Of a stretch of DNA of 64,000 nucleotides, positions 3,238 to 47,261 are shown one piece after another. How positions within the stretch are numbered: the stretch's first letter is position 1; each line of letters begins with the position of its first letter. Source of the DNA: a virus (Duplodnaviria > Heunggongvirae > Uroviricota > Caudoviricetes); IMG/VR virus record IMGVR_UViG_3300042484_000872, positions 48,338-112,337 of that record; one strand, written 5' to 3'. The notes below the pieces were generated by a model that worked only from the letters and a program-made list of their open reading frames with translations, was not told where the DNA came from and did not search any database. Both the position numbers and the translations under genes were made by a program.

Positions 3238-3965
3238 TAATTAGTTGGTTTTGAGTTAGGTGCTTGACCATCTATTCCTTCTGCACTAATGTCTGATTTC
3301 AAATTAAAATAAGTAGATAATAGTTTTTGTGAGGTAAGTTGTAACACTTGTTGTTCTAAGTATCCAGGAAGAGCAAATTCTTTATCTAAAGGATTCTTAC
3401 ATATCTCATCATTGGTGTATTGTGGAGATCCACATCCACATTCAGGATACATAATGTCATTAGTTACATCTTCTTCGAAGAATGCTACAAATCTAATTGC
3501 TTTAAGTAAAGGATTGTTCACATATAAATATCCATTAGTAATCCAGAAGTATTCTTCTTTTTTAATTACAGGAAGTTTAAGTAAGTTTAAATATCTATTA
3601 ATAGAGATTTCTTTTAACTTCTTCCCTTTACCACTCATGGCATTAATAGAATAAACTCCTTGAATAACATATTGGTAATTACCTTCTGATATACGTGGGA
3701 GTTTAAATTTAGTTCTAGCTATAGAACAAGGATCTACGTAGTTACAACATTCAGAAATAGATACCTCTATCATCTCTAGACAAGGGATAGTGGTAAATAA
3801 TGTATCAGTAGCCCAAAGCTTTCTAAGATTGGTTTCTCTCTTGATTAATAACAAGGAGTTGTTTCTTATCTCAGAAGCAATTGCTCTATCTGTAATAAGA
3901 CTATCTGTAGAAAGTATCTTGTGGACACTTCTAACATCTGATACTAATTTTCTTAATGTTGCCAT
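3237..3965 (-). CDS. hypothetical protein
   Basis: 242-aa ORF, 1-nt overlap with the downstream gene (translational coupling). Confidence 0.5.
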   Translation of the reverse strand: MATLRKLVSDVRSVHKILSTDSLITDRAIASEIRNNSLLLIKRETNLRKLWATDTLFTTIPCLEMIEVSISECCNYVDPCSIARTKFKLPRISEGNYQYVIQGVYSINAMSGKGKKLKEISINRYLNLLKLPVIKKEEYFWITNGYLYVNNPLLKAIRFVAFFEEDVTNDIMYPECGCGSPQYTNDEICKNPLDKEFALPGYLEQQVLQLTSQKLLSTYFNLKSDISAEGIDGQAPNSKPTN

Positions 3966-3967
3966 AA

Positions 3968-5200
3968 TTATATTCGGGTTTCGAACTCTGCTATTTTACC
4001 TAGCTTACTGTCATAAACTAGAGCAAGAGCTGCACGTACTGAGTGTACGAAGTTATTATCTAAGTGCCATCTATCAGTTCCTGAAAGACTAGGCATTTGT
4101 TGTATTCTTACACCTTTGACTTCTTTAGCCATATAGTGATGTTTATCTCCTGTGTGTATCTCTCTGTATTTAGCATTACCAAAGAAATGACTATATTCAG
4201 GATGTGTAGCAAACAATAAAGGAAGATCATCTAATTTACAATTACCATGGTGCCATCCAATAAATGTATTACCTAACACTTTAGCTTTGATAACTGAATG
4301 TTCTCTGATAAAATCTACATCCATAGCATCTTGAAAATATACATCTAATGCATGTGCTAAGTAGAAAGATTTAGTTCTATCATGATTACCCTGTACAAGT
4401 ACAACAGTTACATCACTAGCATACTGTCTCAGCATATTGATTGTATCTACAAGAACAGAGAATCCTAATTCATACTCTGAATGGTAATCCATTATAGTAT
4501 CTTGTGGTGTACCCTGTGTAGTTTGATGTTGGTAGTTATCAGTATGGAAGAAATCATTTGATATAGGAAGTACAACAGTGTTTATGTTGTAATTAGCTTT
4601 CACTTTACAGATCAAAGATTGAGCCACATTGAAATATCTTAAGGCTCTTGCTTTTGGATCATTGTCACCATCTACACATCTTTTAGCTAAATGGAAATCA
4701 GATAAAGATATTTCTACGTCTACATAATCTTTATCAGTAGTACGATCTTCTTTAATGATTGATACATTAGTTGGTTTGTAGTTTTCTAAAAACTTAGCAA
4801 AGTCTTCAGGAGAATAATCTTGTGGTTGTTTTCTTTTACTAAAGACTGAGGAAGTAAAACTTCCACTTGGTAACATCTTAGACCAATAATTGGTAATGAC
4901 GTATTTATCTAGGTTTATCTTATGTAGCTTAGCTAACTCAAGATCATCTTTAGGTTCAAATGCACTAGTGACAGTACTTTCTATTGTTCCTTTCTCAACA
5001 TTCACTTTTCTAGATTCTTCCATGAATTTAGTAGCAATTCCTACAAGCACATCATCAACATCATCTTTTTCTCTCAGCTCTTTTAGAAGATCATTCACTT
5101 CAAATTCACTTATTCCTAGTTTTTCTGCGTAGAACTTTTTACTTTTCTTTTGCCTTAATAATTCTTCTAATCTATGTAACAAGCTTTGATTTTCAGACAT
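3968..5200 (-). CDS. calcineurin-like metallophosphoesterase
   Basis: VVLVQGNHD (GNHD motif), GWHHGN and HTGDKHH motifs typical of the metallophosphatase fold. Confidence 0.5.
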   Translation of the reverse strand: MSENQSLLHRLEELLRQKKSKKFYAEKLGISEFEVNDLLKELREKDDVDDVLVGIATKFMEESRKVNVEKGTIESTVTSAFEPKDDLELAKLHKINLDKYVITNYWSKMLPSGSFTSSVFSKRKQPQDYSPEDFAKFLENYKPTNVSIIKEDRTTDKDYVDVEISLSDFHLAKRCVDGDNDPKARALRYFNVAQSLICKVKANYNINTVVLPISNDFFHTDNYQHQTTQGTPQDTIMDYHSEYELGFSVLVDTINMLRQYASDVTVVLVQGNHDRTKSFYLAHALDVYFQDAMDVDFIREHSVIKAKVLGNTFIGWHHGNCKLDDLPLLFATHPEYSHFFGNAKYREIHTGDKHHYMAKEVKGVRIQQMPSLSGTDRWHLDNNFVHSVRAALALVYDSKLGKIAEFETRI

Positions 5201-14091: not shown

Positions 14092-14125
14092 AATGTAGTT
14101 AAATTTAATAATTGGTTTTAATTTG

Positions 14126-14200
14126 TTGCGTGGGTTGGACTCGAACCAACGACCTCTAGGTTATGAGCCTAGCGAGCTAACCAACTGCTACTACCACACG
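14126..14200 (-). tRNA. tRNA-Met (CAT), initiator-like
   Basis: Reverse complement CGTGTGGTAGTAGCAGTTGGTTAGCTCGCTAGGCTCATAACCTAGAGGTCGTTGGTTCGAGTCCAACCCACGCAA. Anticodon loop CTCATAA, T-arm GTTGG-TTCGAGT-CCAAC, C1/A72 mismatch and A11:U24 as in bacterial tRNA-fMet. Strongly resembles E. coli tRNA-fMet by eye. Acceptor stem by hand alignment; D-stem pairing imperfect; no encoded CCA. Needs tRNAscan-SE/ARAGORN. Confidence 0.6.
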
Positions 14201-26070: not shown

Positions 26071-26382
26071 ATGAACAAACATTTAACAAATGAACAAATA
26101 GATAACAGACTTGGTGCTGTTATGAATGCATTTAAAGAAGAGAATGCTACAAGTGTAATGAATATGAACTCTGTAGCTAGTTTATTAACTTCTGGTACAT
26201 ATAGTATCAATGGTGATGCTGAGATTAATGAGCAAGTAGCTAAATCAATCAAGAGATTGACAAGCTTTGTTAATAGAATATCTGATATAGTGCATAAAGG
26301 CACTGAAGAATGTGATCTTGATTCTCAAATTGATGAGAATCGTAAATTTTGGGAAGAACTTAAATCAATATTAAATCCTTAA
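26071..26382 (+). CDS. hypothetical protein
   Basis: 103-aa ORF; TCCTTAATAAC motif 7 nt upstream of the ATG. Confidence 0.5.
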   Translation: MNKHLTNEQIDNRLGAVMNAFKEENATSVMNMNSVASLLTSGTYSINGDAEINEQVAKSIKRLTSFVNRISDIVHKGTEECDLDSQIDENRKFWEELKSILNP

Positions 26383-27970: not shown

Positions 27971-28468
27971 ATGAGCACACAAACATCAGGTGGAATATTC
28001 ACCTTTGACCATGGTCAAAAAAAACTTAACCTTGCAATTGGTGTATCACCAGAATATTTAGAGGATCTTGGTACACAAGTATCAAATCTATTGAAAGATT
28101 TTATTTTTGATGATGATAAAAATCTTAGAGAAGATACATCACCAAGTCAATTAGTAGAAATATGTGCTAATGAGTTTAGTTATTCTCAATTAGTAGTTTT
28201 AGCATCATTCTATCTACAAGATAGAGTAGATGGATTTGCTAAGAAATTAGAGGACAAATTGAAAAATATGAAATCATCAGCTAAAGCTATAAGATTAAAT
28301 AGTGATGATGTTCCAGATAACATCAAAGAGATGCTTGAAAATCTTACAGAAGGACGTAGTGAAGGTGATCCAATTGATGGTGATTCATTACCACAAGAGC
28401 TTAAAGACTTTCTTGATAAATTAGCTGAAGAGCAACAAAGACAAGAAGGAGATGGTGATGATGACTAA
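27971..28468 (+). CDS. hypothetical highly acidic protein
   Basis: 165 aa, ends EGDGDDD. TCCTTAATAAC directly abuts the ATG. Confidence 0.5.
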   Translation: MSTQTSGGIFTFDHGQKKLNLAIGVSPEYLEDLGTQVSNLLKDFIFDDDKNLREDTSPSQLVEICANEFSYSQLVVLASFYLQDRVDGFAKKLEDKLKNMKSSAKAIRLNSDDVPDNIKEMLENLTEGRSEGDPIDGDSLPQELKDFLDKLAEEQQRQEGDGDDD

Positions 28469-31479: not shown

Positions 31480-31713
31480 TTTGATTAATTATTTGGTTTG
31501 TTACTCCCTGTAGATTATATTTGCAGGGATATTGTATAATCACTGGGGACTATAAACGCCACATAGCAGTTTAAATAGTCAATGTATGTGCTGCGTATCA
31601 TTGAACTTACCTATATTATGCATATTATGAGTTTAGAACTCACTAGAGTGATACAAAAAGAATAGGGAAGCTGAAAACTATATAGAGTAGGTACAAAATT
31701 AAACCAATGAACA

Positions 31714-31896
31714 ATGAAGTATCTAATAAGTATAGTCTTTACGTTCTTATCTGTATTAGCCTTTATGAAACTATTGTTTCTATTGAATAAGGGCAATACT
31801 GTTGCAAATGTTTTTGCTATAGTAGGTATATTCTTATTGGGATATATAATTGCAAGAACAAAGTTATTTACACAATTAAAATCAAAGAAAAAATGA
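31714..31896 (+). CDS. small membrane protein
   Basis: 60 aa, hydrophobic, overlaps the lipoprotein start by 4 nt. Confidence 0.3.
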   Translation: MKYLISIVFTFLSVLAFMKLLFLLNKGNTVANVFAIVGIFLLGYIIARTKLFTQLKSKKK

Positions 31897-32738
31897 AAAA
31901 AGTAGTATTATTAGGAGCATTAGTTGCTATGTTTGCAACATCATGTACAACAGCTGACTCAAGTGAAGTGGCATTAGTGGTAGATCAAATTGGAAATGAT
32001 AAGGGAATTCCAAACATTCAAATGGAATCAGGATTCATATTCTATTTCCCACCAACACAAGATGTATACACCTATCCAACATCTGTACAACATAAAGTGT
32101 GGAGTGCAGACAATCAAGAAGGATCAGAAACAGATGAGCACATTGATGTAACATCATCAGATGGAGCTACATTTGGTCTTGATGTATCTATAAACTTACA
32201 ATTACAAAGAGCTAAGGCATCAGAGTTGTTTATAAAATACAGAGTGGACATGGATGAGTTGATACATACAAGAGTAAGAACTATTGTTAGAAAAGAATTA
32301 TTAGATAATGCTGTTAACTTTGCATCAGATAGTCTTTTACAACATAGAAATATATATGAGGCCAATGTAACTAAGACATTAACATTATCATTAGAGAAAG
32401 AAGGATTCACATTGAATAACATTGCTGTATTAAAGATGGCATTACCATCATCATACAAGAAAGCTATTGAAAGAAAGATTGCTGTGTTACAAGAAACAGC
32501 AACTATCATCTCTCAGACTAAACAAGCTGAACAAACAGCATTGAAGAAAGTGGCATTAGCTAAGGGTAATTACGAAGCAGCACAATATGATGCTAAGACA
32601 AAAGAAATCTTATCACAACCTAAGCTTCTTGAATTATACAGAGCAGAAACAGAAAGAGTATGGGCAAATAAAGGCAGATCTCCATATGGTTCTAATAATG
32701 TATTTGGTTCTGCATCTGGAATTCTTTTAAATAGATAA
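31893..32738 (+). CDS. lipoprotein, SPFH/band-7-like
   Basis: Signal peptide with lipobox MKKVVLLGALVAMFATSC. The rest has prohibitin/HflC-like helical segments (weak, by eye). Confidence 0.5.
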   Translation: MKKVVLLGALVAMFATSCTTADSSEVALVVDQIGNDKGIPNIQMESGFIFYFPPTQDVYTYPTSVQHKVWSADNQEGSETDEHIDVTSSDGATFGLDVSINLQLQRAKASELFIKYRVDMDELIHTRVRTIVRKELLDNAVNFASDSLLQHRNIYEANVTKTLTLSLEKEGFTLNNIAVLKMALPSSYKKAIERKIAVLQETATIISQTKQAEQTALKKVALAKGNYEAAQYDAKTKEILSQPKLLELYRAETERVWANKGRSPYGSNNVFGSASGILLNR

Positions 32739-33048
32739 TTGCACAGTGGTCCTACATCCACACACATTAAACTTGTAGGATTGGTCTCTGATGTTAGGGA
32801 ACACTTGTGAGTTGCAATGATAAAACTCTCAAACAGGCTAAACATTGAACCAGATAGTGCATGAGGCCCATGCTACGAGTAACTATCAAAGATACTATCA
32901 GTAATGGTAGTTGGATGTTATGATGAATGGTGCTCTCTATGACAATTTGCACATAGGAGCACACATTTATCTAATTCAATTTTAAGATTATTAATATAAA
33001 TGCTTGGTACTAATCATTTTTATTTGTACATTTGTAAAAAATATTATT

Positions 33049-33534
33049 ATGTGGAAACAAATAGAAGACTATGATTATGAAATAAATCCTGAAGGAATAG
33101 TAATGAGAATTTCAACTAAAAGAATTAAAAAATCTTTTAAAAGACCTGATGGATACATTGGTATTCAATTGTACAAATCTAAAACAGAGATTAAAAACTT
33201 TCAGTTACATAGATTAATAGCAATTGCATTTATTAATAATCCTGAAAACAAAGACATTATTAACCATAAAGATTCAAATAGAGAAAACAATTCTTTAAAT
33301 AATCTTGAATGGGTAACAAAAAAAGAAAATGACAAACATGCTTATGAATTTGGTAATGCTTCAAACAAAGGTTCTAAAAATGGTTTTTCTGTATTAACAG
33401 AAGAACAAGTATTGAAAATAAGAAAAAAAAGAGCAGAAAATAAACTAACTTATCAAAAATTAGCAGAGTTGTATAATGTTTCTTACGGTTGTATTGCAGG
33501 TATAATACAAAGAACAAATTGGAAACATATTTAA
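33049..33534 (+). CDS. HNH homing endonuclease (HNH_3 / NUMOD4-type)
   Basis: MWKQIEDYDYEINPEGIV... start context, HRLIAIAF, INHKDSNRENNSLNNLEWVTKKEN. Start moved to Met-16 of the track ORF. Confidence 0.6.
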   Translation: MWKQIEDYDYEINPEGIVMRISTKRIKKSFKRPDGYIGIQLYKSKTEIKNFQLHRLIAIAFINNPENKDIINHKDSNRENNSLNNLEWVTKKENDKHAYEFGNASNKGSKNGFSVLTEEQVLKIRKKRAENKLTYQKLAELYNVSYGCIAGIIQRTNWKHI

Positions 33535-34169
33535 AATAATCTAAACCCTGACAGAAACTGTATAGTAATATATAGAATGGATATAGCTGTATGAGATATG
33601 CTATTATGTACCATTGGGAGTTCTCAGCAAGTAGTTAATCAGGTGTGAGTTCAGTAATCCTCCCAATTACACATCGAAAGGAGGTAATTAACTACGTGAC
33701 CCTACTCTTATATCTAACAATCGTAATTGATTTGCAGAAACAATAGTACATAAGAACAGACTATAAGAAAGAGGGTGCTAAACAATATTTAAAGCTCGAG
33801 GCTCAATCATTTGATTTGAGCACGCTACCTCGGACTATGATAAGTGTCCTCACATGAGGAATTTGGGCTCGACTGGAATTGACTGGTTATTATAGATTAT
33901 ACAATTCAGCCAGAGAGATAACTGTAAACTAAGGTGAATTATTTTAAATGGCAAAAACACAAGTCGTGTAGTGGCTCTAGGAGCAAACGCACAAATCGAA
34001 GCTAATATGAACAAAGTATTCTCATTATTAAATGAGGATGTAATCGTTGGTTTAGCAGCCTAAATTACCTCAAGATTTCTCTATTAGATTAAATAGAGTG
34101 GTGGGAACGTTAAGCCTAGCTTGACCCTAAATAAGCTGTATAAAATTGTATTTTTGAAGTAAGCAACAC

Positions 34170-34194
34170 GAGGGTTCGAATCCCTCCGAGTCCA
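34170..34194 (+). other. orphan tRNA 3' fragment (T-arm GAGGG-TTCGAAT-CCCTC + acceptor 3' strand CGAGTCC-A)
   Basis: Canonical T-arm read directly. No complementary 5' acceptor strand (GGACTCG) anywhere upstream. Confidence 0.35.
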
Positions 34195-34215
34195 CTGATT
34201 ACCAGTTAGTTAAAT

Positions 34216-34326
34216 GATTGAGTGGCGGAATTGGTAGACGTTATGTTATGTACAGATACTAAGCAGAAGTGAGATTGCTGTACTAAGCTCACATCCTGAA
34301 TACAGGTTCGAATCCTGTCTCAATCA
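34216..34326 (+). tRNA. tRNA-like gene, class-II-type D-arm, ~20 nt longer than a canonical tRNA; anticodon not assignable by eye
   Basis: 5' GATTGAG pairs perfectly with 3' CTCAATC. D-arm TGGCGGAATTGGTAGACG, T-arm ACAGG-TTCGAAT-CCTGT, discriminator A. The middle 60 nt contains a duplicated ACTAAGC and stems GTACAG/CTGTAC and GTGAG/CTCAC. Confidence 0.4.
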
Positions 34327-34547
34327 CAGCAGTTACTTGACGCAAATAGCACAGTAACAGACATTGGATAGTTTGCACATCACGAATGTTAAGTCCTTTC
34401 CACGCAGAGAAGGAGTTGAGTACTTATAGGGAAGAAATGTTCCTAATCTCAACAATTGACATCTCCCAAGGGAGAAGGTCCTATTAAAGCCTCTATTAAC
34501 ATAGGGGCTTTTCTTATTATGTATTAATCCTTAATAACTAAATAACA

Positions 34548-35330
34548 ATGAAAGAAAAGTTTATACCTTATACAAAGAAAAAGTATTCTATTACATCTGA
34601 TGGATTAGTTTATTCTAACTATAAAAATACTAACATTGGTGGAAAGTTTTATGAAAAGAAACTTATCAGCAAATATCTACAACAAAATTGTGCTGTTCTT
34701 AATTTACAATTTGGTAAATGGTCCAAAACCAATAAATCAACAACTGTTTTTATGAATACATTAATGAAAGATATATTTAAATTAAAAAAACCAGATACAT
34801 TTCATATGTATGATTTAAGACCTAAGAATGGTAATGTGTTCGATAGTTCATTAGATAATCTAGAATGGAGAATTAGATCCACTTCTGATTTCAATTTCTA
34901 TCCTCAACCATATTATGATAAAAAAGGCAATATAACATCTAAACGTTGCTCACATTGTGGAGAGATACATGATATTAATCGATATGTATTACAGAGGCCT
35001 AAGAGACCAGATGAGAATAATACATATAAGAACAAATGTAAATCTTGTAGACATGATCAAGAATGGAAACTTATAAATTCAGATGATAAAAAACTTGCTA
35101 GATATAAAGAACAACAAAAAAGATATACAAATTCTGAAAAAGGAAAAGCTTATCATAGAGAATATGGAATAGTTTGGTCTAAAAAAGATTATGATAGAAT
35201 AGGTGATCATTATATAAGTAATTGCTTAAAAGTAACAAGAAAAGAATTAACACCAGAATTACGAGAAATATTTAAAAAGAAAATAACCTTAAAACGAAAA
35301 TTAGAAAATCATGGCAACAAAGAAAATTAA
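34548..35330 (+). CDS. HNH-like endonuclease with Zn-finger (HNH_3-like LDNLEW motif)
   Basis: EKFIPYTKKKYSITSDGLVYSNY (NUMOD4-like), FHMYDLRPKNGN...LDNLEWRI, CSHCGE...CKSC zinc finger. TCCTTAATAAC 9 nt upstream. Confidence 0.45.
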   Translation: MKEKFIPYTKKKYSITSDGLVYSNYKNTNIGGKFYEKKLISKYLQQNCAVLNLQFGKWSKTNKSTTVFMNTLMKDIFKLKKPDTFHMYDLRPKNGNVFDSSLDNLEWRIRSTSDFNFYPQPYYDKKGNITSKRCSHCGEIHDINRYVLQRPKRPDENNTYKNKCKSCRHDQEWKLINSDDKKLARYKEQQKRYTNSEKGKAYHREYGIVWSKKDYDRIGDHYISNCLKVTRKELTPELREIFKKKITLKRKLENHGNKEN

Positions 35331-35529: not shown

Positions 35530-35555
35530 ATTATTAATCCTTAATAACAATAGAA

Positions 35556-43423: not shown

Positions 43424-44488
43424 ATGAGTTTTGAACTATTAAATGCAGAAGTTAACAAAGGCCTAGGTGATTTCAATAGAGGTATACCAATGGGCTTTGA
43501 TAGGCTTACTAGATATGTAGGTATTCGTAAGGGAATGTATTATTTGATAGGTGGTAACACAGGTTCAGGTAAGACATCTTTTATTGATGATGCATTTGTT
43601 CTTAATCCTGTTGATTGGGCTATGTCCAAAGAAGGAATAGCTTCAGGTATAAAGGTGAAGGTGTGGTATAGGTCCATGGAGAGAAGTAGAACATACAAGA
43701 TGGCCAAATGGGTATCTCGTAAAATATTTCTAGACCAGGGTATAATTATTCCTGTAGGTAAATTACTTGGCTGGAATGAGAAGATGACTAAAGATGAGCA
43801 TGATCTATTTTTATATTATAAAGATTATGTAGAACAGCTCAGTGAGATAGTCACCATCATAGATGGTCCAGAGAATCCTGTAGGTATAGCAAAAGAACTT
43901 AAAGCTTATGCTGAAGAGAATGGTGAGATACAGCAATTGGACAAATGGAATAAAATATATGTTCCTAATGATCCAACACAAATTACCATGGTTGTAGTAG
44001 ATCACATTGGTCTATTAAAAACAACAACAGCTCAACCAACTAAAAAGGATGCTATTGATAAGATGTCTGATGAACTCAGATATGCTAGAGATTTCTATGG
44101 CTACAGTCCTGTAGTGGTAAGTCAGTTCAACAGAAGCATTTCTAATCCATCTAGGATAAAGAATGGTGATGTAGAACCTCAGTTAGAAGATTTTGCAGAT
44201 AGCTCAAGCACACAGAATGATGCTGATGTAGTTATGGCCTTATTTGATCCTATGAGATATAAAGTGGCAGATCCTAGTGGATATGACCTAGATAAATTAA
44301 AAGATCAATTTGGTGCTAAGTATTTCAGAAGTGTAAGACTAATCAAGAATTCATACGGTGAAGATGATGTGAGAATTGGACTAGCATTCCTAGGTGAACT
44401 TGGTTTATTCAAGGAGCTACCTAGAAAGAAAGATATCACAGAAGCAGATTATGAATCAATTACAAATAAGAGTTTCTTTCTTAGATAA
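43424..44488 (+). CDS. DnaB-family (SF4) replicative helicase, C-terminal RecA-like domain only
   Basis: H1 GGNTGSGKTSFIDDAFVLN, H2 VVVDHIGLL, H3 VVVSQFNRS, H4 QNDADVVMALFD. Lacks the DnaB N-terminal domain (354 aa). Confidence 0.65.
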   Translation: MSFELLNAEVNKGLGDFNRGIPMGFDRLTRYVGIRKGMYYLIGGNTGSGKTSFIDDAFVLNPVDWAMSKEGIASGIKVKVWYRSMERSRTYKMAKWVSRKIFLDQGIIIPVGKLLGWNEKMTKDEHDLFLYYKDYVEQLSEIVTIIDGPENPVGIAKELKAYAEENGEIQQLDKWNKIYVPNDPTQITMVVVDHIGLLKTTTAQPTKKDAIDKMSDELRYARDFYGYSPVVVSQFNRSISNPSRIKNGDVEPQLEDFADSSSTQNDADVVMALFDPMRYKVADPSGYDLDKLKDQFGAKYFRSVRLIKNSYGEDDVRIGLAFLGELGLFKELPRKKDITEADYESITNKSFFLR

Positions 44489-44527: not shown

Positions 44528-45211
44528 ATGAAAACAACAAATTATTCAAAATTCCTATTCTCTAAAGAAAACAGAGAAATTAAAACAAAAACAGTCTTAG
44601 CAATTAAAGACTCAATGACTAAATTTGGATTTATTCCAGGTAGACCAGTATTAATTACAAAAGAATGGGTGATCATTGATGGTCAACACAGATTCTTAGC
44701 AGCTAAAGAACTTGGTATCTCAGTAGAGTTTGAAATTGTAGAAGGAAATTACATTGACAAAATGATTCTTTTAAATTCTACACAATCAAATTGGACTTTA
44801 GAAGATTACGTAAATTCATATGCACAACAGAATGTTGATTGCTACAGAAAGCTTTTGAAATTCAAAGATAAATATGAATTAAATCTTTCTTGCTCAATCG
44901 TTCTTTTATTTGGTTCAGGTGTAAAAACTGCTGATATTAGAAAAGGAGAAGTTCTTAAACAAAATCCTAATGCAGATCGAATGGCAGAATATGTTTTAAA
45001 CTGTAGTACAATATCTTACAACAAAGATCAAAAGTTTGTTAGAGCAATTGCAGCAGTGTATGATAAGTTAACAAGACCTCAATTGATAAAATTAAGATCA
45101 AGATTGATCGTTGTTCCAGCTTTATCTAATACAACTGACTTTGTTATAGCCTTTGAAAACATTATCAATAAAGGTAAAAGAGGAGATTACAAAGTGAAAT
45201 TAAGTAGATAA
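44528..45211 (+). CDS. ParB-like nuclease domain protein
   Basis: VIIDGQHRFLAAKELG matches the ParB/sulfiredoxin DGxHR motif. Confidence 0.6.
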   Translation: MKTTNYSKFLFSKENREIKTKTVLAIKDSMTKFGFIPGRPVLITKEWVIIDGQHRFLAAKELGISVEFEIVEGNYIDKMILLNSTQSNWTLEDYVNSYAQQNVDCYRKLLKFKDKYELNLSCSIVLLFGSGVKTADIRKGEVLKQNPNADRMAEYVLNCSTISYNKDQKFVRAIAAVYDKLTRPQLIKLRSRLIVVPALSNTTDFVIAFENIINKGKRGDYKVKLSR

Positions 45212-45213
45212 AT

Positions 45214-45315
45214 ATGAGTATAAGAGACCTCAGACAGAAAGAGTTTGCTGATGTATGGTTAAAAGAAAAGCATGGTATACTCAATCTATGTCCAAGGTTG
45301 TTAATAACTTTTTAA
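45214..45315 (+). pseudogene. diverged duplicate of the 5' end of the SF2 helicase gene (33 codons then stop)
   Basis: MSIRDLRQKEFADVWLKEKHGILNLCPRLLITF* aligns with the helicase N-terminus MSKSLRDIRQAEFAKAWIDKGKKGIIYACPRFGK (RDxRQxEFAxxWxxxxxGIxxxCPR). Confidence 0.5.
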
Positions 45316-45340: not shown

Positions 45341-46153
45341 ATGTTATATCTTTGTCATATGAAAATAGATATAGCCCTTAGAAAAGTGACTGGTATATAT
45401 AAAATTACCAACACTATAAACAATAAATCATATGTAGGAAGTTCTGTTGATGTATATCAAAGAGGATGTATGTATAAGCACTTAATCAAAAGAAAGAAGT
45501 TACATAACAAACATTTACAGTCAGCTGTAGAGAAGTATGGATATGATAATTTTACATTTGAAGTCTTAGATAAGTGTGAAGAAGGTACATCTGTTTTTGA
45601 TTTGCATCAATTAGAACAATCTTACATAAACAAAATTAATCCTGAGTACAATAAAAGAACTGTTGTAGACACAAATCATTTACTTTCACATTCTCAAGAA
45701 ACTAAAGATAAAATATCTAATAGTTTGAAAGAATCTTTTAAGAATGGTAGTAAAGTTATCAATCGTATACAAGAACATAATATAAAAGTTAGTCTATTTG
45801 ATCTATCTGGAAATCATATTCAAGATTTTCCAGGATTAGCTCATTGTGCTGATTTTGTAGGAGTGAAGTATCAGAGCGTAACTTTTGCTATAAACAGTGA
45901 AAGAAGAAGAGTTAAGAATTACATAGTGCTACGTACAGAGGAATCTAATTTGGTAAAAGATTTTCTAAACATACCTAAATTAAATTATGCTAAAAAAGTT
46001 ACAGTTCTAGATATAATTACAAATGAGACATTACAATTTATTAATTGTAAACTGTGTGCAGAATTTATAAATTGTAAACCAACAACTGTAAAAAAATGTT
46101 ATGAGAATGGTAAAATTTGGAAAAACAAATACAAAATAATAAACTATGAGTAA
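45341..46153 (+). CDS. GIY-YIG homing endonuclease
   Basis: GIYKITNTINNKSYVGSS...R...KHLQSAVEKYG...FEVL...E. Alternative start at 45359. Inserted between the helicase fragment and the intact helicase gene. Confidence 0.65.
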   Translation: MLYLCHMKIDIALRKVTGIYKITNTINNKSYVGSSVDVYQRGCMYKHLIKRKKLHNKHLQSAVEKYGYDNFTFEVLDKCEEGTSVFDLHQLEQSYINKINPEYNKRTVVDTNHLLSHSQETKDKISNSLKESFKNGSKVINRIQEHNIKVSLFDLSGNHIQDFPGLAHCADFVGVKYQSVTFAINSERRRVKNYIVLRTEESNLVKDFLNIPKLNYAKKVTVLDIITNETLQFINCKLCAEFINCKPTTVKKCYENGKIWKNKYKIINYE

Positions 46154-47261
46154 AAGTTTAAGAGATATTAGACAAGCAGAATTTGCAAAAGCTTGGATAG
46201 ATAAAGGAAAGAAGGGTATAATTTACGCTTGTCCAAGGTTTGGCAAGATAAGAACTAGTATATTAATATTAAAACAACTTCCTAAAAAAAGTCTTAGTTA
46301 TACGAATGCAACAGTTTATCCTTCAGTATTGATTGCTTACCCAGATAATAAGATTAAAGAATCTTGGCAATCTGATTTTGATGATCTTGGATATGATGAT
46401 AGCAATGTCACATACACAACACATTTATCATTAAAGAAGTTAGTAGACAATGAGTATGATATTATTATTATAGATGAGATACATCTACTGAGTGAAGCTC
46501 AGATAGAAGCATGTCAAGATCTATTTAGTAACAATGCTTGTATACTAGGTCTCACTGGTACATTAGCCAGTGATACAGAAAGAACTCTCGAAGAGGAACT
46601 TGATTTACATGTTGTAGCTCACTATCCAATTGAAAAAGCGATTGAAGAAGGTGTTATTGTAGATTATGAGATACATGTTATTAAAGTGCCCCTTGACAAT
46701 CTTGTACACAATGATTATAAAGGAAAACTTAAAACAGAGAAGAAACACTATGATGGATTATCTTGGGTAATCAATAAACTTCAGAATAGTGGATCAGACA
46801 CTATGTTCATGCGTCTTGCAAGAATGAGACTTATTCAATCATCTTTAGCTAAAACTAATGCTACGAAAAAGCTATTAGCTAAACATAAAGATGAGAGAGT
46901 GTTAGTATTCTGTGGCACCACTGCTGTAGCAGATAGTCTTGGTATTCCTTCCTATCATAATAAGTCTAAAGAAAAGAGTATCTTTGAAGACTTTGCTGAA
47001 GGAGAAGGTAATCACCTAGCTGTTGTAAAGATTGGTAATACAGGAGTTACATATAAGCCTCTAGACAAAGTGATTATTAATTATTTCGATAGTAATGCAG
47101 AGAATCTCGCACAAAAAATAAATCGATGTATGGCTATGGAATATAACACTCCTGATAAGAAAGCCCACATATACATAGTGAGTTCTAATGAACCTGTAGA
47201 ATTGAAATGGTTACAGAAAGCTTTAGAATTCTTCGATAAAACCAAAATAAAATACATATAA
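46146..47261 (+). CDS. SF2 DExH-type helicase/ATPase
   Basis: Motif I-like ACPRFGKIRT, motif II IIIDEIH, motif III LTGTLASD. Confidence 0.5.
   Translation: MSKSLRDIRQAEFAKAWIDKGKKGIIYACPRFGKIRTSILILKQLPKKSLSYTNATVYPSVLIAYPDNKIKESWQSDFDDLGYDDSNVTYTTHLSLKKLVDNEYDIIIIDEIHLLSEAQIEACQDLFSNNACILGLTGTLASDTERTLEEELDLHVVAHYPIEKAIEEGVIVDYEIHVIKVPLDNLVHNDYKGKLKTEKKHYDGLSWVINKLQNSGSDTMFMRLARMRLIQSSLAKTNATKKLLAKHKDERVLVFCGTTAVADSLGIPSYHNKSKEKSIFEDFAEGEGNHLAVVKIGNTGVTYKPLDKVIINYFDSNAENLAQKINRCMAMEYNTPDKKAHIYIVSSNEPVELKWLQKALEFFDKTKIKYI

Follow-up and report, generated by a model that had tools for sequence, protein, structure and literature searches.

Structures shaped like tRNA can serve as RNA processing signals, as the tRNA-like mascRNA of MALAT1 does, and in Escherichia coli the 3' trailer of a tRNA precursor gives rise to the small RNA (sRNA) 3'ETS-leuZ, which ends at the operon terminator. 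In plant mitochondria, the t-elements are tRNA-like signals for processing by RNase P and RNase Z (PMC1920247). Phages also produce small stable RNAs: RNAC and RNAD of T4 are made together with its tRNA genes and have no known role (PMC3014915, PMC9697503), and mycobacteriophage DS6A carries a mini-tmRNA (transfer-messenger RNA) consisting only of the tRNA-like domain (TLD), which has been suggested to titrate SmpB (PMC4131195). Complete phage tmRNAs have been described for mycobacteriophages (Bxz1 group) and for Bacillus phage G (PMC4131195); those of flavobacterial phages have been listed without comment (PMC8776804, PMC11590407), with annotated examples in Cellulophaga phage Calle and Maribacter phage Panino. 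The locus analysed here lies in a stretch of 64,000 nucleotides (nt) of the Caudoviricetes virus record IMGVR_UViG_3300042484_000872, hereafter the window. Its positions 32740-34521 are likely to form an island of phage genes for non-coding RNAs, which share the + strand with the genes on either side; they include a tmRNA, an anticodon-less RNA with the shape of a tRNA and at least two further structured RNAs, named D and U2'. As for RNAC and RNAD of T4, these are phage small RNAs, but no sequence relation is expected and the hosts differ, being Escherichia for T4 and probably a member of Flavobacteriia for the window.

From U2' on, the island comprises successively U2', a hairpin leader, the tmRNA, the tRNA-shaped RNA, D and an intrinsic terminator (Table 1). 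The best reading of the sequence comparisons given below is that it is probably a polycistronic RNA operon, which would be cut by the tRNA-processing enzymes of the host. A large part of the island, positions 33535-34547 (1013 nt), had been singled out in an earlier note on this DNA as a 1-kb gap without any open reading frame (ORF) of 60 amino acids or more, unique in the window. A six-frame scan agrees, since it ranks this stretch as the longest of the window without such an ORF, the runners-up being 932-1779 and 1-709; all the ORFs that it contains have at most 54 amino acids. Every hairpin and feature quoted in that note was located in the sequence. Among the four explanations that it offered, sRNA genes is the correct one, as the region consists of RNA genes on the + strand. 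The outcome that would have spoken against it, namely tools returning nothing or only canonical tRNAs together with poor conservation, is not what was found: the region is conserved far beyond chance, and pieces of 33535-34547 recur across dozens of viral and metagenomic contigs. These relatives, fetched from IMG/VR and metagenomes, are designated by L-numbers (L004, L036 and so on); their retrieval by exact patterns taken from conserved ends biases the apparent conservation.

Table 1. Features of the RNA island and of the ORFs on its flanks (coordinates of the window)
Feature	Coordinates	Strand	Evidence and sequence elements
U1	32740-32844	+	conserved structured module of ~100 nt; aligns with L004 from 6848 onward, nhmmer 2.9e-48
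Truncated canonical U2 5' fragment	32845-32914	+	GGCTAAACATTGAA, H1 hairpin GATACTATCAGTAATGGTAG; stops past GGTAG
Inserted cassette bearing an HNH gene	32915-33549	+	ORF 33004-33534; cassette absent in L004
HNH endonuclease ORF, left flank	33004-33534	+	Pfam HNH_3 4.6e-9; phrog_59 7.9e-42
U2'	33550-33782	+	complete structured RNA of the U2 family
Two-hairpin leader	33797-33860	+	CGAGG[GCUCAA..UUGAGC]..CCUCG (33797-33832); UCCUCACAUGAGGA (33847-33860)
Phage tmRNA	33865-34194	+	ARAGORN and Rfam RF00023; complete, CCA not encoded
Tag reading frame	33950-34063	+	conserved frame; GKNTSRVVALGANAQIEANMNKVFSLLNEDVIVGLAA then stop if resumed at GGC 33950
tRNA-shaped RNA	34216-34326 (111 nt)	+	RF00005, 36.9 bits (gathering 29)
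D RNA	34327-34460 (~134 nt)	+	four RNAalifold helices; begins CAGCAG right after the discriminator
Intrinsic terminator	34486-34521	+	terminator scan; 11-bp stem AAAGCCUCUAU/AUAGGGGCUUU, then U-rich tail
ORF, right flank	34548-35330	+	weak HNH-family match: phrog_959 8.2e-7; no Pfam match

The T-arm and 3' acceptor strand at 34170-34194, which had been taken for half of a tRNA without its partner, form the last part of a phage tmRNA that is complete. The two elements are real, but a 5' half is not missing, since GGGCTCG at 33865, 330 nt upstream, pairs with the acceptor strand. ARAGORN calls the tmRNA at 33865-34195, and the RF00023 match (33865-34197; 49.9 bits for a gathering threshold of 47, E 1.1e-16) extends over the whole model, positions 1-374. 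The acceptor pairs GGGCUCG (33865-33871) with CGAGUCC (34187-34193) and includes G3.U70, the alanine identity pair. It is followed inwards by the T-arm GAGGG-UUCGAAU-CCCUC (34170-34186) and outwards by the discriminator A34194, and there is no anticodon arm. The acceptor covaries with that of L004 (GGGGGUG/CACCUCC), and both genes retain G3.U70 despite their different stems. The first pseudoknot (PK1) and helix 2 also align with RF00023, several of their pairs being non-canonical.

Sequence comparison places this tmRNA in a lineage, carried by phages of Flavobacteriia, with at least 23 members. A nhmmer profile search of the fetched relatives gives 23 unique tmRNA sequences, 22 besides that of the window, and a separate Rfam scan of the loci of 16 relatives finds 13 that reach the RF00023 gathering threshold, with 52.6-87.2 bits. 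An unannotated locus of FpV4-like Flavobacterium psychrophilum phages shares 80.6% identity with the window tmRNA, and the annotated tmRNA of Cellulophaga phage Calle_1 is a more distant homologue that shares the tag core AQIEANM. Among the cultured phages of INPHARED, searched at blastn sensitivity, only the tmRNA part of the ORF-free region has relatives; none was found for U2', the tRNA-like gene or D, and no cultured phage is close to the window overall.

Bacterial tmRNA tags usually have ~10 amino acids, and a preprint contains the Bacteroides string GETNYALAA. In the window, the tag has up to 37 if translation resumes at GGC 33950, and 26 with the later resume codon, GCA 33983, chosen by ARAGORN; it ends with GLAA, followed by UAA. 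The frame thus has what is expected of a tag ORF: a resume codon starting with G, neither start codon nor Shine-Dalgarno sequence, a stop, and a hydrophobic end in AA. A single open tag frame is present in all 23 unique tmRNA sequences. The core NAQ[IV]xANMxxV[FH][SN][LI][LI] and the frame are found in 22 of the 23, and the tags end with AA, but with GV in Calle_1. Wherever the upstream end is present, an A/U-rich run (mostly AAAU or AAUU) precedes the codon starting with G. The tags predicted for the relatives range from 27 to 45 amino acids, and their indels are only multiples of three. Differences at codon positions 1, 2 and 3 number 2021, 2173 and 3336, respectively, a third-position excess that fits constraint on the tag peptide. 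Literature searches returned no description of a long phage tag or of its conservation.

The gene can be compared with the phage tmRNAs known from the Bxz1 group, phage G, Calle and Panino. As in these, a phage genome carries the whole of ssrA, with a tRNA-like domain bearing G3.U70, a predicted pseudoknot ahead of the ORF and a tag ending with AA. Unlike them, its lineage has a conserved tag of 27-45 amino acids, the PK2-4 region is reduced in the window, and the gene has structured RNAs as probable operon mates.

Phages often integrate at tRNA and tmRNA genes, and integration was the explanation given for the copies in a Maribacter phage (PMC11590407). The tmRNA and the tRNA-like gene of the window could accordingly be attP remnants of a temperate phage that targets an ssrA or tRNA gene, an idea close to the att-like core considered in the earlier note. 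However, the tmRNA is full length, with a tag frame under purifying constraint in 22 lineages, and no integrase was found among the 26 ORFs scanned. Furthermore, the 3' 25-mer of the tRNA-like gene is absent from 185,579 bacterial and archaeal species (one genome each), although such an exact pattern would miss diverged copies. Attachment-site remnants are therefore barely credible here.

Two observations concern tmRNA genes of other phages. In two close relatives, a group I intron (RF00028) splits the T-arm of the tmRNA: in L036 (3998-4221, - strand, 94.8 bits), whose tmRNA pieces are ~760 nt apart, and in L112 (2766-2989, - strand, 96.4 bits). The window tmRNA has no intron and, as the earlier note had suspected, there is no group I intron in the window: RF00028 has no match at gathering, nor at E up to 5 in 33400-34700. 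Besides, a stretch of 33 nt of the tmRNA past the tag stop (34072-34104) is identical in the human-gut crAss-like phage cr128_1, and 33906-33954 shares 92% identity with a stretch of phi14:2, a crAss-like Cellulophaga phage, where a coding sequence is annotated as 'hypothetical protein'. These similarities suggest that both phages probably carry related, unannotated tmRNAs.

The tRNA-like gene that follows the tmRNA is real. It is anticodon-less and is not a decoding tRNA, and it is a member of a conserved family, not a scar. In the RF00005 match, its acceptor, D and T arms are aligned with a posterior near 1. The acceptor is GAUUGAG/CUCAAUC, followed by A73 and with U3-A70 at the third pair; the T arm is ACAGG-UUCGAAU-CCUGU, and the D arm, GCG-GAAUUGGUAGA-CGU, has a 3-bp stem and G18G19. 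This D arm is of the tRNA-Leu type and resembles that of bacterial tRNA-Leu. The gene thus has the acceptor, the D arm with G18G19, the T arm with UUCGAAU and the discriminator of a canonical tRNA; it lacks the 5-bp anticodon stem with its 7-nt loop and exceeds the usual 70-95 nt. In place of the 17-nt anticodon arm of the model, the Rfam alignment has 54 nt. The ACTAAGC duplication reported for this centre is no feature of the family. Its two interleaved stems noticed earlier, GUACAG/CUGUAC and GUGAG/CUCAC, could form an H-type pseudoknot.

The family was collected by searching for the 25-mer of either end and for a degenerate pattern of the 3' end. It has 38 unique members of 69-189 nt, which all open with GAUUGAG-UG and a D arm containing GG and close with ACAGG-UUCGAAU-CCUGU-CUCAAUC-A. 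Their centres fall into 27 classes without detectable mutual similarity, and the 61-nt centre of the window (34241-34301) is a singleton. Some members (L166, L189, L209) have hairpin insertions in the D-loop, and the centres of L185 and L208 hold a nested second T-arm or a whole acceptor/T minihelix. Kindred elements with other acceptors (AGUCAGG, GAUAAAG, GAUCUGA) occupy the same kinds of position. Across the four acceptor types, the 12-bp stack of acceptor and T stem is paired in 98.2% of cases, with compensatory changes at nine of the 12 pairs, for 32-48% in slid controls. The D-stems covary as well, when compared by eye (GCG/CGU, ACC/GGU, GGUAG/CUAUC). So far, the family has been found on phage contigs only, and literature searches did not retrieve any description of it. 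In L037 (3055-3291), two tRNA-shaped elements stand in tandem ahead of D.

These comparisons bear on whether the gene could be a decaying phage tRNA-Leu pseudogene, or a scar left by homing-endonuclease repair, whose centre has drifted or been filled in. The tRNA-Leu-like D arm, the HNH genes flanking the region and the HNH cassette that remodelled the U2 gene 700 nt upstream would all suit such an origin, as would a window centre that is unique and no stabler than shuffled sequences, and an element that L004 dispenses with. Yet decay should be seen everywhere, whereas the acceptor, D and T arms are intact in 38 members with unrelated centres, and the helices show compensatory changes across four acceptor types, in addition to the D-stem covariation. 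Compensatory changes also occur within two classes of centres (L163 versus L189; L041, L195, L043 and L174), and the centres as a group are slightly stabler than shuffles (mean z -0.64). A pseudogene or scar is thus unlikely. The proposal that homing endonucleases had broken or duplicated tRNA genes is wrong for both of the features that it named, one being the intact 3' end of a tmRNA and the other a conserved family member; endonuclease activity did remodel the locus just upstream of them, where the HNH cassette stands between a truncated U2 copy and a complete U2'.

A working decoding tRNA, in which a short intron or an extreme variable arm would be removed or tolerated, is very unlikely. 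The gene scores above the gathering threshold of RF00005, and the intron mode of ARAGORN forces it into a tRNA-Ala (tgc) with a 25-nt intron; the default mode makes no call for it. Over the 38 members, however, the intron option returns 12 amino-acid identities plus stop and undetermined, at non-canonical intron positions, and leaves 16 uncalled. An intron-bearing decoding tRNA is unsupported because these identities are inconsistent among members with the same arms. A 5-bp stem with a 7-nt loop and U33 cannot be drawn by eye in the window centre, and several other centres end in tetraloops or, in L185 and L208, contain the nested T-arm. The introns of bacterial tRNAs are group I introns, and RF00028 has no match here.

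Three defined types of RNA were also tried for this gene and rejected. The permuted tmRNA model RF04321 gives 13.6 bits at 34170-34235 for a gathering threshold of 47, so that with no anticodon arm and erratic ARAGORN intron calls, neither a small insertion in a tRNA nor a permuted structure, as once suggested, is supported. For a tRNA interrupted by a group I intron, the RF00028 search gives no match here, although it finds introns of ~95 bits in the tmRNAs of L036 and L112. A TLD-only RNA of the DS6A type fails, as the third pair is U3-A70 and not G3.U70 and the D stem has 3 bp with a GAAUUGGUAGA loop. The likeness to the DS6A RNA is that of a phage-encoded, anticodon-less, tRNA-shaped small RNA; the true D stem with G18G19, the large centre, U3-A70 and a resemblance to type II (Leu-like) tRNA set the window element apart.

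In its way of working, the tRNA-shaped RNA would come closest to mascRNA or to plant mitochondrial t-elements. As in a t-element, selection keeps its acceptor/T domain (98.2% paired) without the decoding parts and, as in both systems, a non-decoding tRNA-shaped module sits at the boundary of another RNA, here D in 29 of 35 contexts. Unlike these eukaryotic or organellar elements, it is bacterial-viral, has a full D arm and elbow, and belongs to a family whose centre of 20-160 nt is exchangeable. Unlike t-elements, it is not strictly needed, as the tmRNA's own end can serve (L004).

The D RNA is the other side of this boundary. It is conserved in at least 24 distinct sequences, with ~60 positions invariant in 24. 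In 24 aligned relatives, 99.2% of the helix cells are paired and eight pairs show compensatory changes, for 36-51% in slid controls. D begins, as CAGCRG, exactly one base past the discriminator that closes a tRNA-shaped structure, in 29 of 35 unique contexts. Of these 29, 18 follow a GAUUGAG-type element, four follow the tmRNA directly and five follow other tRNA-like elements; the last two follow an exon of the intron-split tmRNA (L112) and a T-arm variant (L037). It is chiefly this constant junction that speaks for tRNA 3'-end processing as the origin of the 5' end of D.

No Rfam 15 family matches D at E up to 5 with permissive filters, in the window or in the contiguous copy of L004, and a D pattern with 22 specified bases is absent from bacterial genomes (one each of 185,579 bacterial and archaeal species), a search that would miss diverged copies. 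A self-cleaving ribozyme at the junction, such as a hepatitis delta virus (HDV)-like or a hatchet ribozyme, was considered and dropped: no Rfam ribozyme matches at E up to 5, and the helices are sequential hairpins and not a nested double pseudoknot. An ORF of 33 amino acids that overlaps D (34386-34487) was not retained as coding, given the compensatory variation of the helices and indels in P4 that are not multiples of three. Past D, relatives have another hairpin and T-run at the same spot as the terminator of the window. Like 3'ETS-leuZ, D is in the position of a 3' trailer before a terminator; unlike it, D is larger, has four helices, is phage-encoded and follows a tmRNA or a tRNA-like RNA.

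These elements suggest how the polycistronic operon would work. The genes from 26.6 kb onward are all on the + strand, and the island would be transcribed rightward as one or a few precursors stopping at the terminator. RNase P of the host would cleave at G33865 and G34216, where the tmRNA and the tRNA-shaped RNA begin, and a tRNase Z-type enzyme would cleave past the discriminators A34194 and A34326. Cleavage by tRNase Z is a known route for bacterial tRNA genes without an encoded CCA. Here, it would free the 3' ends of the tmRNA and of the tRNA-shaped RNA, neither of which encodes CCA, for CCA addition and create the 5' end of D. The tmRNA would be charged with alanine through G3.U70 and would rescue stalled ribosomes with host SmpB during infection, appending a phage-specific tag of 26-37 amino acids ending with LAA. 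The tRNA-shaped RNA would retain just the features that the enzymes read, namely the acceptor/T minihelix and the D/T elbow; keeping these, it would be stable and precisely trimmed, with its centre free for exchange.

Several points weigh against this reading. The window tmRNA is only 2.9 bits above the RF00023 gathering threshold, its PK2-4 region past the stop does not reach the length of the model and gives a poor alignment (posterior 0.2-0.5), and the resume codon, 33950 or 33983, is proposed from conservation only. The acceptor/T alignment (A3) was assembled by hand, and exact-pattern retrieval from conserved ends makes the GATTGAG-type 3' end look more conserved than it is. The tRNA-shaped RNA of the window folds no better than shuffles (z -0.16; centre alone, z +0.28), and its centre is a singleton, so that any function of this centre would be conjectural. 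In L004 and similar relatives, the tmRNA is immediately followed by D; since L004 manages without the tRNA-shaped RNA, this element is not merely there for the processing of its neighbours. Finally, no promoter was found: a sigma-70 scan scored below shuffles, but the sigma-70 model does not apply to Bacteroidota, and the TAnnTTTG motif was not seen by eye upstream of the tmRNA.

The turnover of the tRNA-shaped element between near-identical genomes can also be read in another way. L004, the closest relative, with flanks 96.7-99.1% identical, lacks exactly the spacer and the tRNA-shaped gene; L036, with flanks 96-98% identical, bears a different member of 69 nt at the same place, and its D arm and centre are found again on another acceptor/T frame in the second element of L172. 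The element could therefore be a scaffold with an exchangeable RNA cargo, for example a decoy or inhibitor of host defence nucleases that target tRNA or of tRNA-binding factors, diversified by cassette exchange in an arms race. The 27 unrelated classes of centres on a constant frame, the D-loop hairpin inserts and nested minihelices of some members, and a family that was not found among the bacterial genomes searched would all agree with it. On the other hand, the search of the window for a complement of the centre, as an antisense target, gave at best a 12-mer (E 0.16, chance level), the centre itself gives no fold signal, it was not linked to any gene of defence or anti-defence, and turnover is equally compatible with neutrality. 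This joint reading of scaffold and arms race is unlikely.

Upstream of the leader, the island holds RNAs of another kind. U1 directly follows the Band_7 gene; it lies outside the ORF-free kilobase, in the same RNA island, and stands alone after D in L033, L102, L172 and L182. Its stem TCCTACA/TGTAGGA corresponds, by eye, to ATTAC/GTAAT in L033. A search of the whole window for the U region matched 32740-33797 only.

The U2 family has the core AGAUACUAUCAGUAAUGGUAGA-[var1]-AAUGAGUUCUCAGC-[var2]-GACCCUA-[var3]-GGGUGCUAA. When members are parsed by these conserved anchors, 11 intact relatives of 138-263 nt are obtained, in which the helix closing each variable domain has a sequence specific to the member. 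Var1 is a hairpin with a conserved loop, CUUGAGAAA, atop a covarying stem; the UCUC of the junction is complementary to GAGA in this loop, which suggests a pseudoknot. In the window, U2' comprises the hairpin H1' CUGUAUA-GUAA-UAUAUAG (33558-33575), var1' closed by AAUGG/CCAUU (33576-33615), the junction GGGAGUUCUCAGC (33616-33628), the var2 stem GUAGUUAAU/AUUAACUAC, GACCCUA (33698-33704), the var3 stem and GGGUGCUAA (33773-33781). No Rfam 15 family matched U2' in the window at E up to 5 with permissive filters, and the same holds for the contiguous copy of L004.

The sequence at this place suggests that the HNH cassette landed in a U2 gene, so that a truncated 5' fragment now precedes it and a complete U2' follows it. 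The 23-mer of the upstream fragment has one mismatch, with 0 matches expected by chance, and L004 is continuous where the window departs after GGTAG. Downstream of the cassette, 33550-33617 is a divergent yet complete counterpart of the missing 5' part, with a loop containing UGAGAU. This 5' part of U2' is 95.7% identical to L030, in which the RNA stands alone past the Band_7 gene, and the 3' part is 96.7% identical to L004. Since 33550-33617 is complete as in L030, 33550-33782 is an intact U2-type RNA and the upstream fragment is the remnant; for the same reason, the idea that the HNH gene split and inactivated U2 was dropped. L195 departs at the same base of U2: its insertion (3576-4189) opens with the same 80 nt as the window cassette and carries a different ORF of 171 amino acids with an HNH motif (CANCHREHH) on the opposite strand. 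This L195 insertion closes with a GUAA-tetraloop hairpin just before var1, as if restoring the displaced hairpin.

Concerning the two HNH genes said to neighbour the ORF-free region, the left one is strongly matched and the right one only weakly (Table 1). The perfect hairpins reported there have fared differently. TTGGGAG...CTCCCAA (33609-33668) is present but not conserved, as its complement is missing in L004 and L030; it would connect the 5' part of U2' with var2 and rivals the CCTCC/GGAGG pairing of the var2 stem, found in the window, L004 and L195. By contrast, GCTCAA...TTGAGC (33801-33821) and CCTCA..TGAGG (33848-33859) are present and kept in L029 via compensatory changes (A-T to G-C, T-A to C-G). 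They belong to the two hairpins of the leader, both of which show compensatory changes in L029. The leader module directly precedes a tRNA-like gene in L029 and a tRNA-Ile in L025 and L026, and a CCYCACAUGRGG hairpin is found 4-6 nt upstream of the tmRNA in L037, L150, L036, L144 and L092.

Other features of the window lie outside the island. The Rfam DUF805b motif occurs at 31661-31693 (+; 36.7 bits for a gathering threshold of 35.6), ~200 nt upstream of the SPFH/Band_7 gene (31893-32738). The sequence TTAATCCTTAATAAC recurs on the + strand, with exact copies at 34524-34538 and 35534-35548 and variants at 26372, 26939, 27956, 29035 and 37688. The exact copies end 7-9 nt before the starts at 34548 and 35556, and a copy with two mismatches abuts the start at 27971. 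It is also conserved ahead of different genes in L036, L039, L040 and L168, and its count in the window is only marginally over that of shuffles (13 versus 8.3); a role as phage promoter or in translation initiation is conceivable. In the two runner-up stretches without ORFs, 932-1779 and 1-709, Rfam gives nothing at gathering threshold. The sole canonical tRNA of the window is a tRNA-Met (CAT) at 14125-14200 (-), distant from the RNA island and on the opposite strand. Further downstream, a GIY-YIG/NUMOD1 homing-endonuclease ORF (45341-46153, +) overlaps by 8 nt a helicase-type gene (ResIII/Helicase_C, 46146-47261), and an unassigned ORF (44528-45211) separates it from a DnaB-like helicase gene (43424-44488). 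The helicase fragment noticed earlier near 45214 fits with these helicase-type genes around the endonuclease ORF.

Beyond processing, the island might be an RNA toolkit directed at the translation and tRNA machinery of the host, a reading that joins three proposals and has, jointly, a limited chance of being right. The tRNA-shaped RNA may be a natural scaffold whose interchangeable centre is a cargo under diversification, for instance one that acts as a decoy for host defences directed at tRNA; D, U2 and U1 may be new classes of structured RNAs with functions of their own; and the tag may have a role beyond marking for degradation, for example in redirecting tagged host proteins.

With the polycistronic operon as the preferred reading, the half-tRNA anomaly is resolved as the end of a tmRNA, and the phages of Flavobacteriia would have a compact operon for stable RNAs that annotation has mostly missed, as with the unannotated tmRNA of the FpV4-like phages. 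At least two structured RNAs with good covariation, D and U2', lack an Rfam family, and U1 is likewise without an Rfam 15 family. The locus also gives a clear example of a homing-endonuclease cassette settled inside a non-coding RNA gene. In the tRNA-shaped family, the parts read by processing enzymes are kept and the centre turns over between near-identical genomes. Finally, with a long tag conserved at the amino-acid level, the question of why a lytic phage should carry a ribosome-rescue RNA becomes open to testing.

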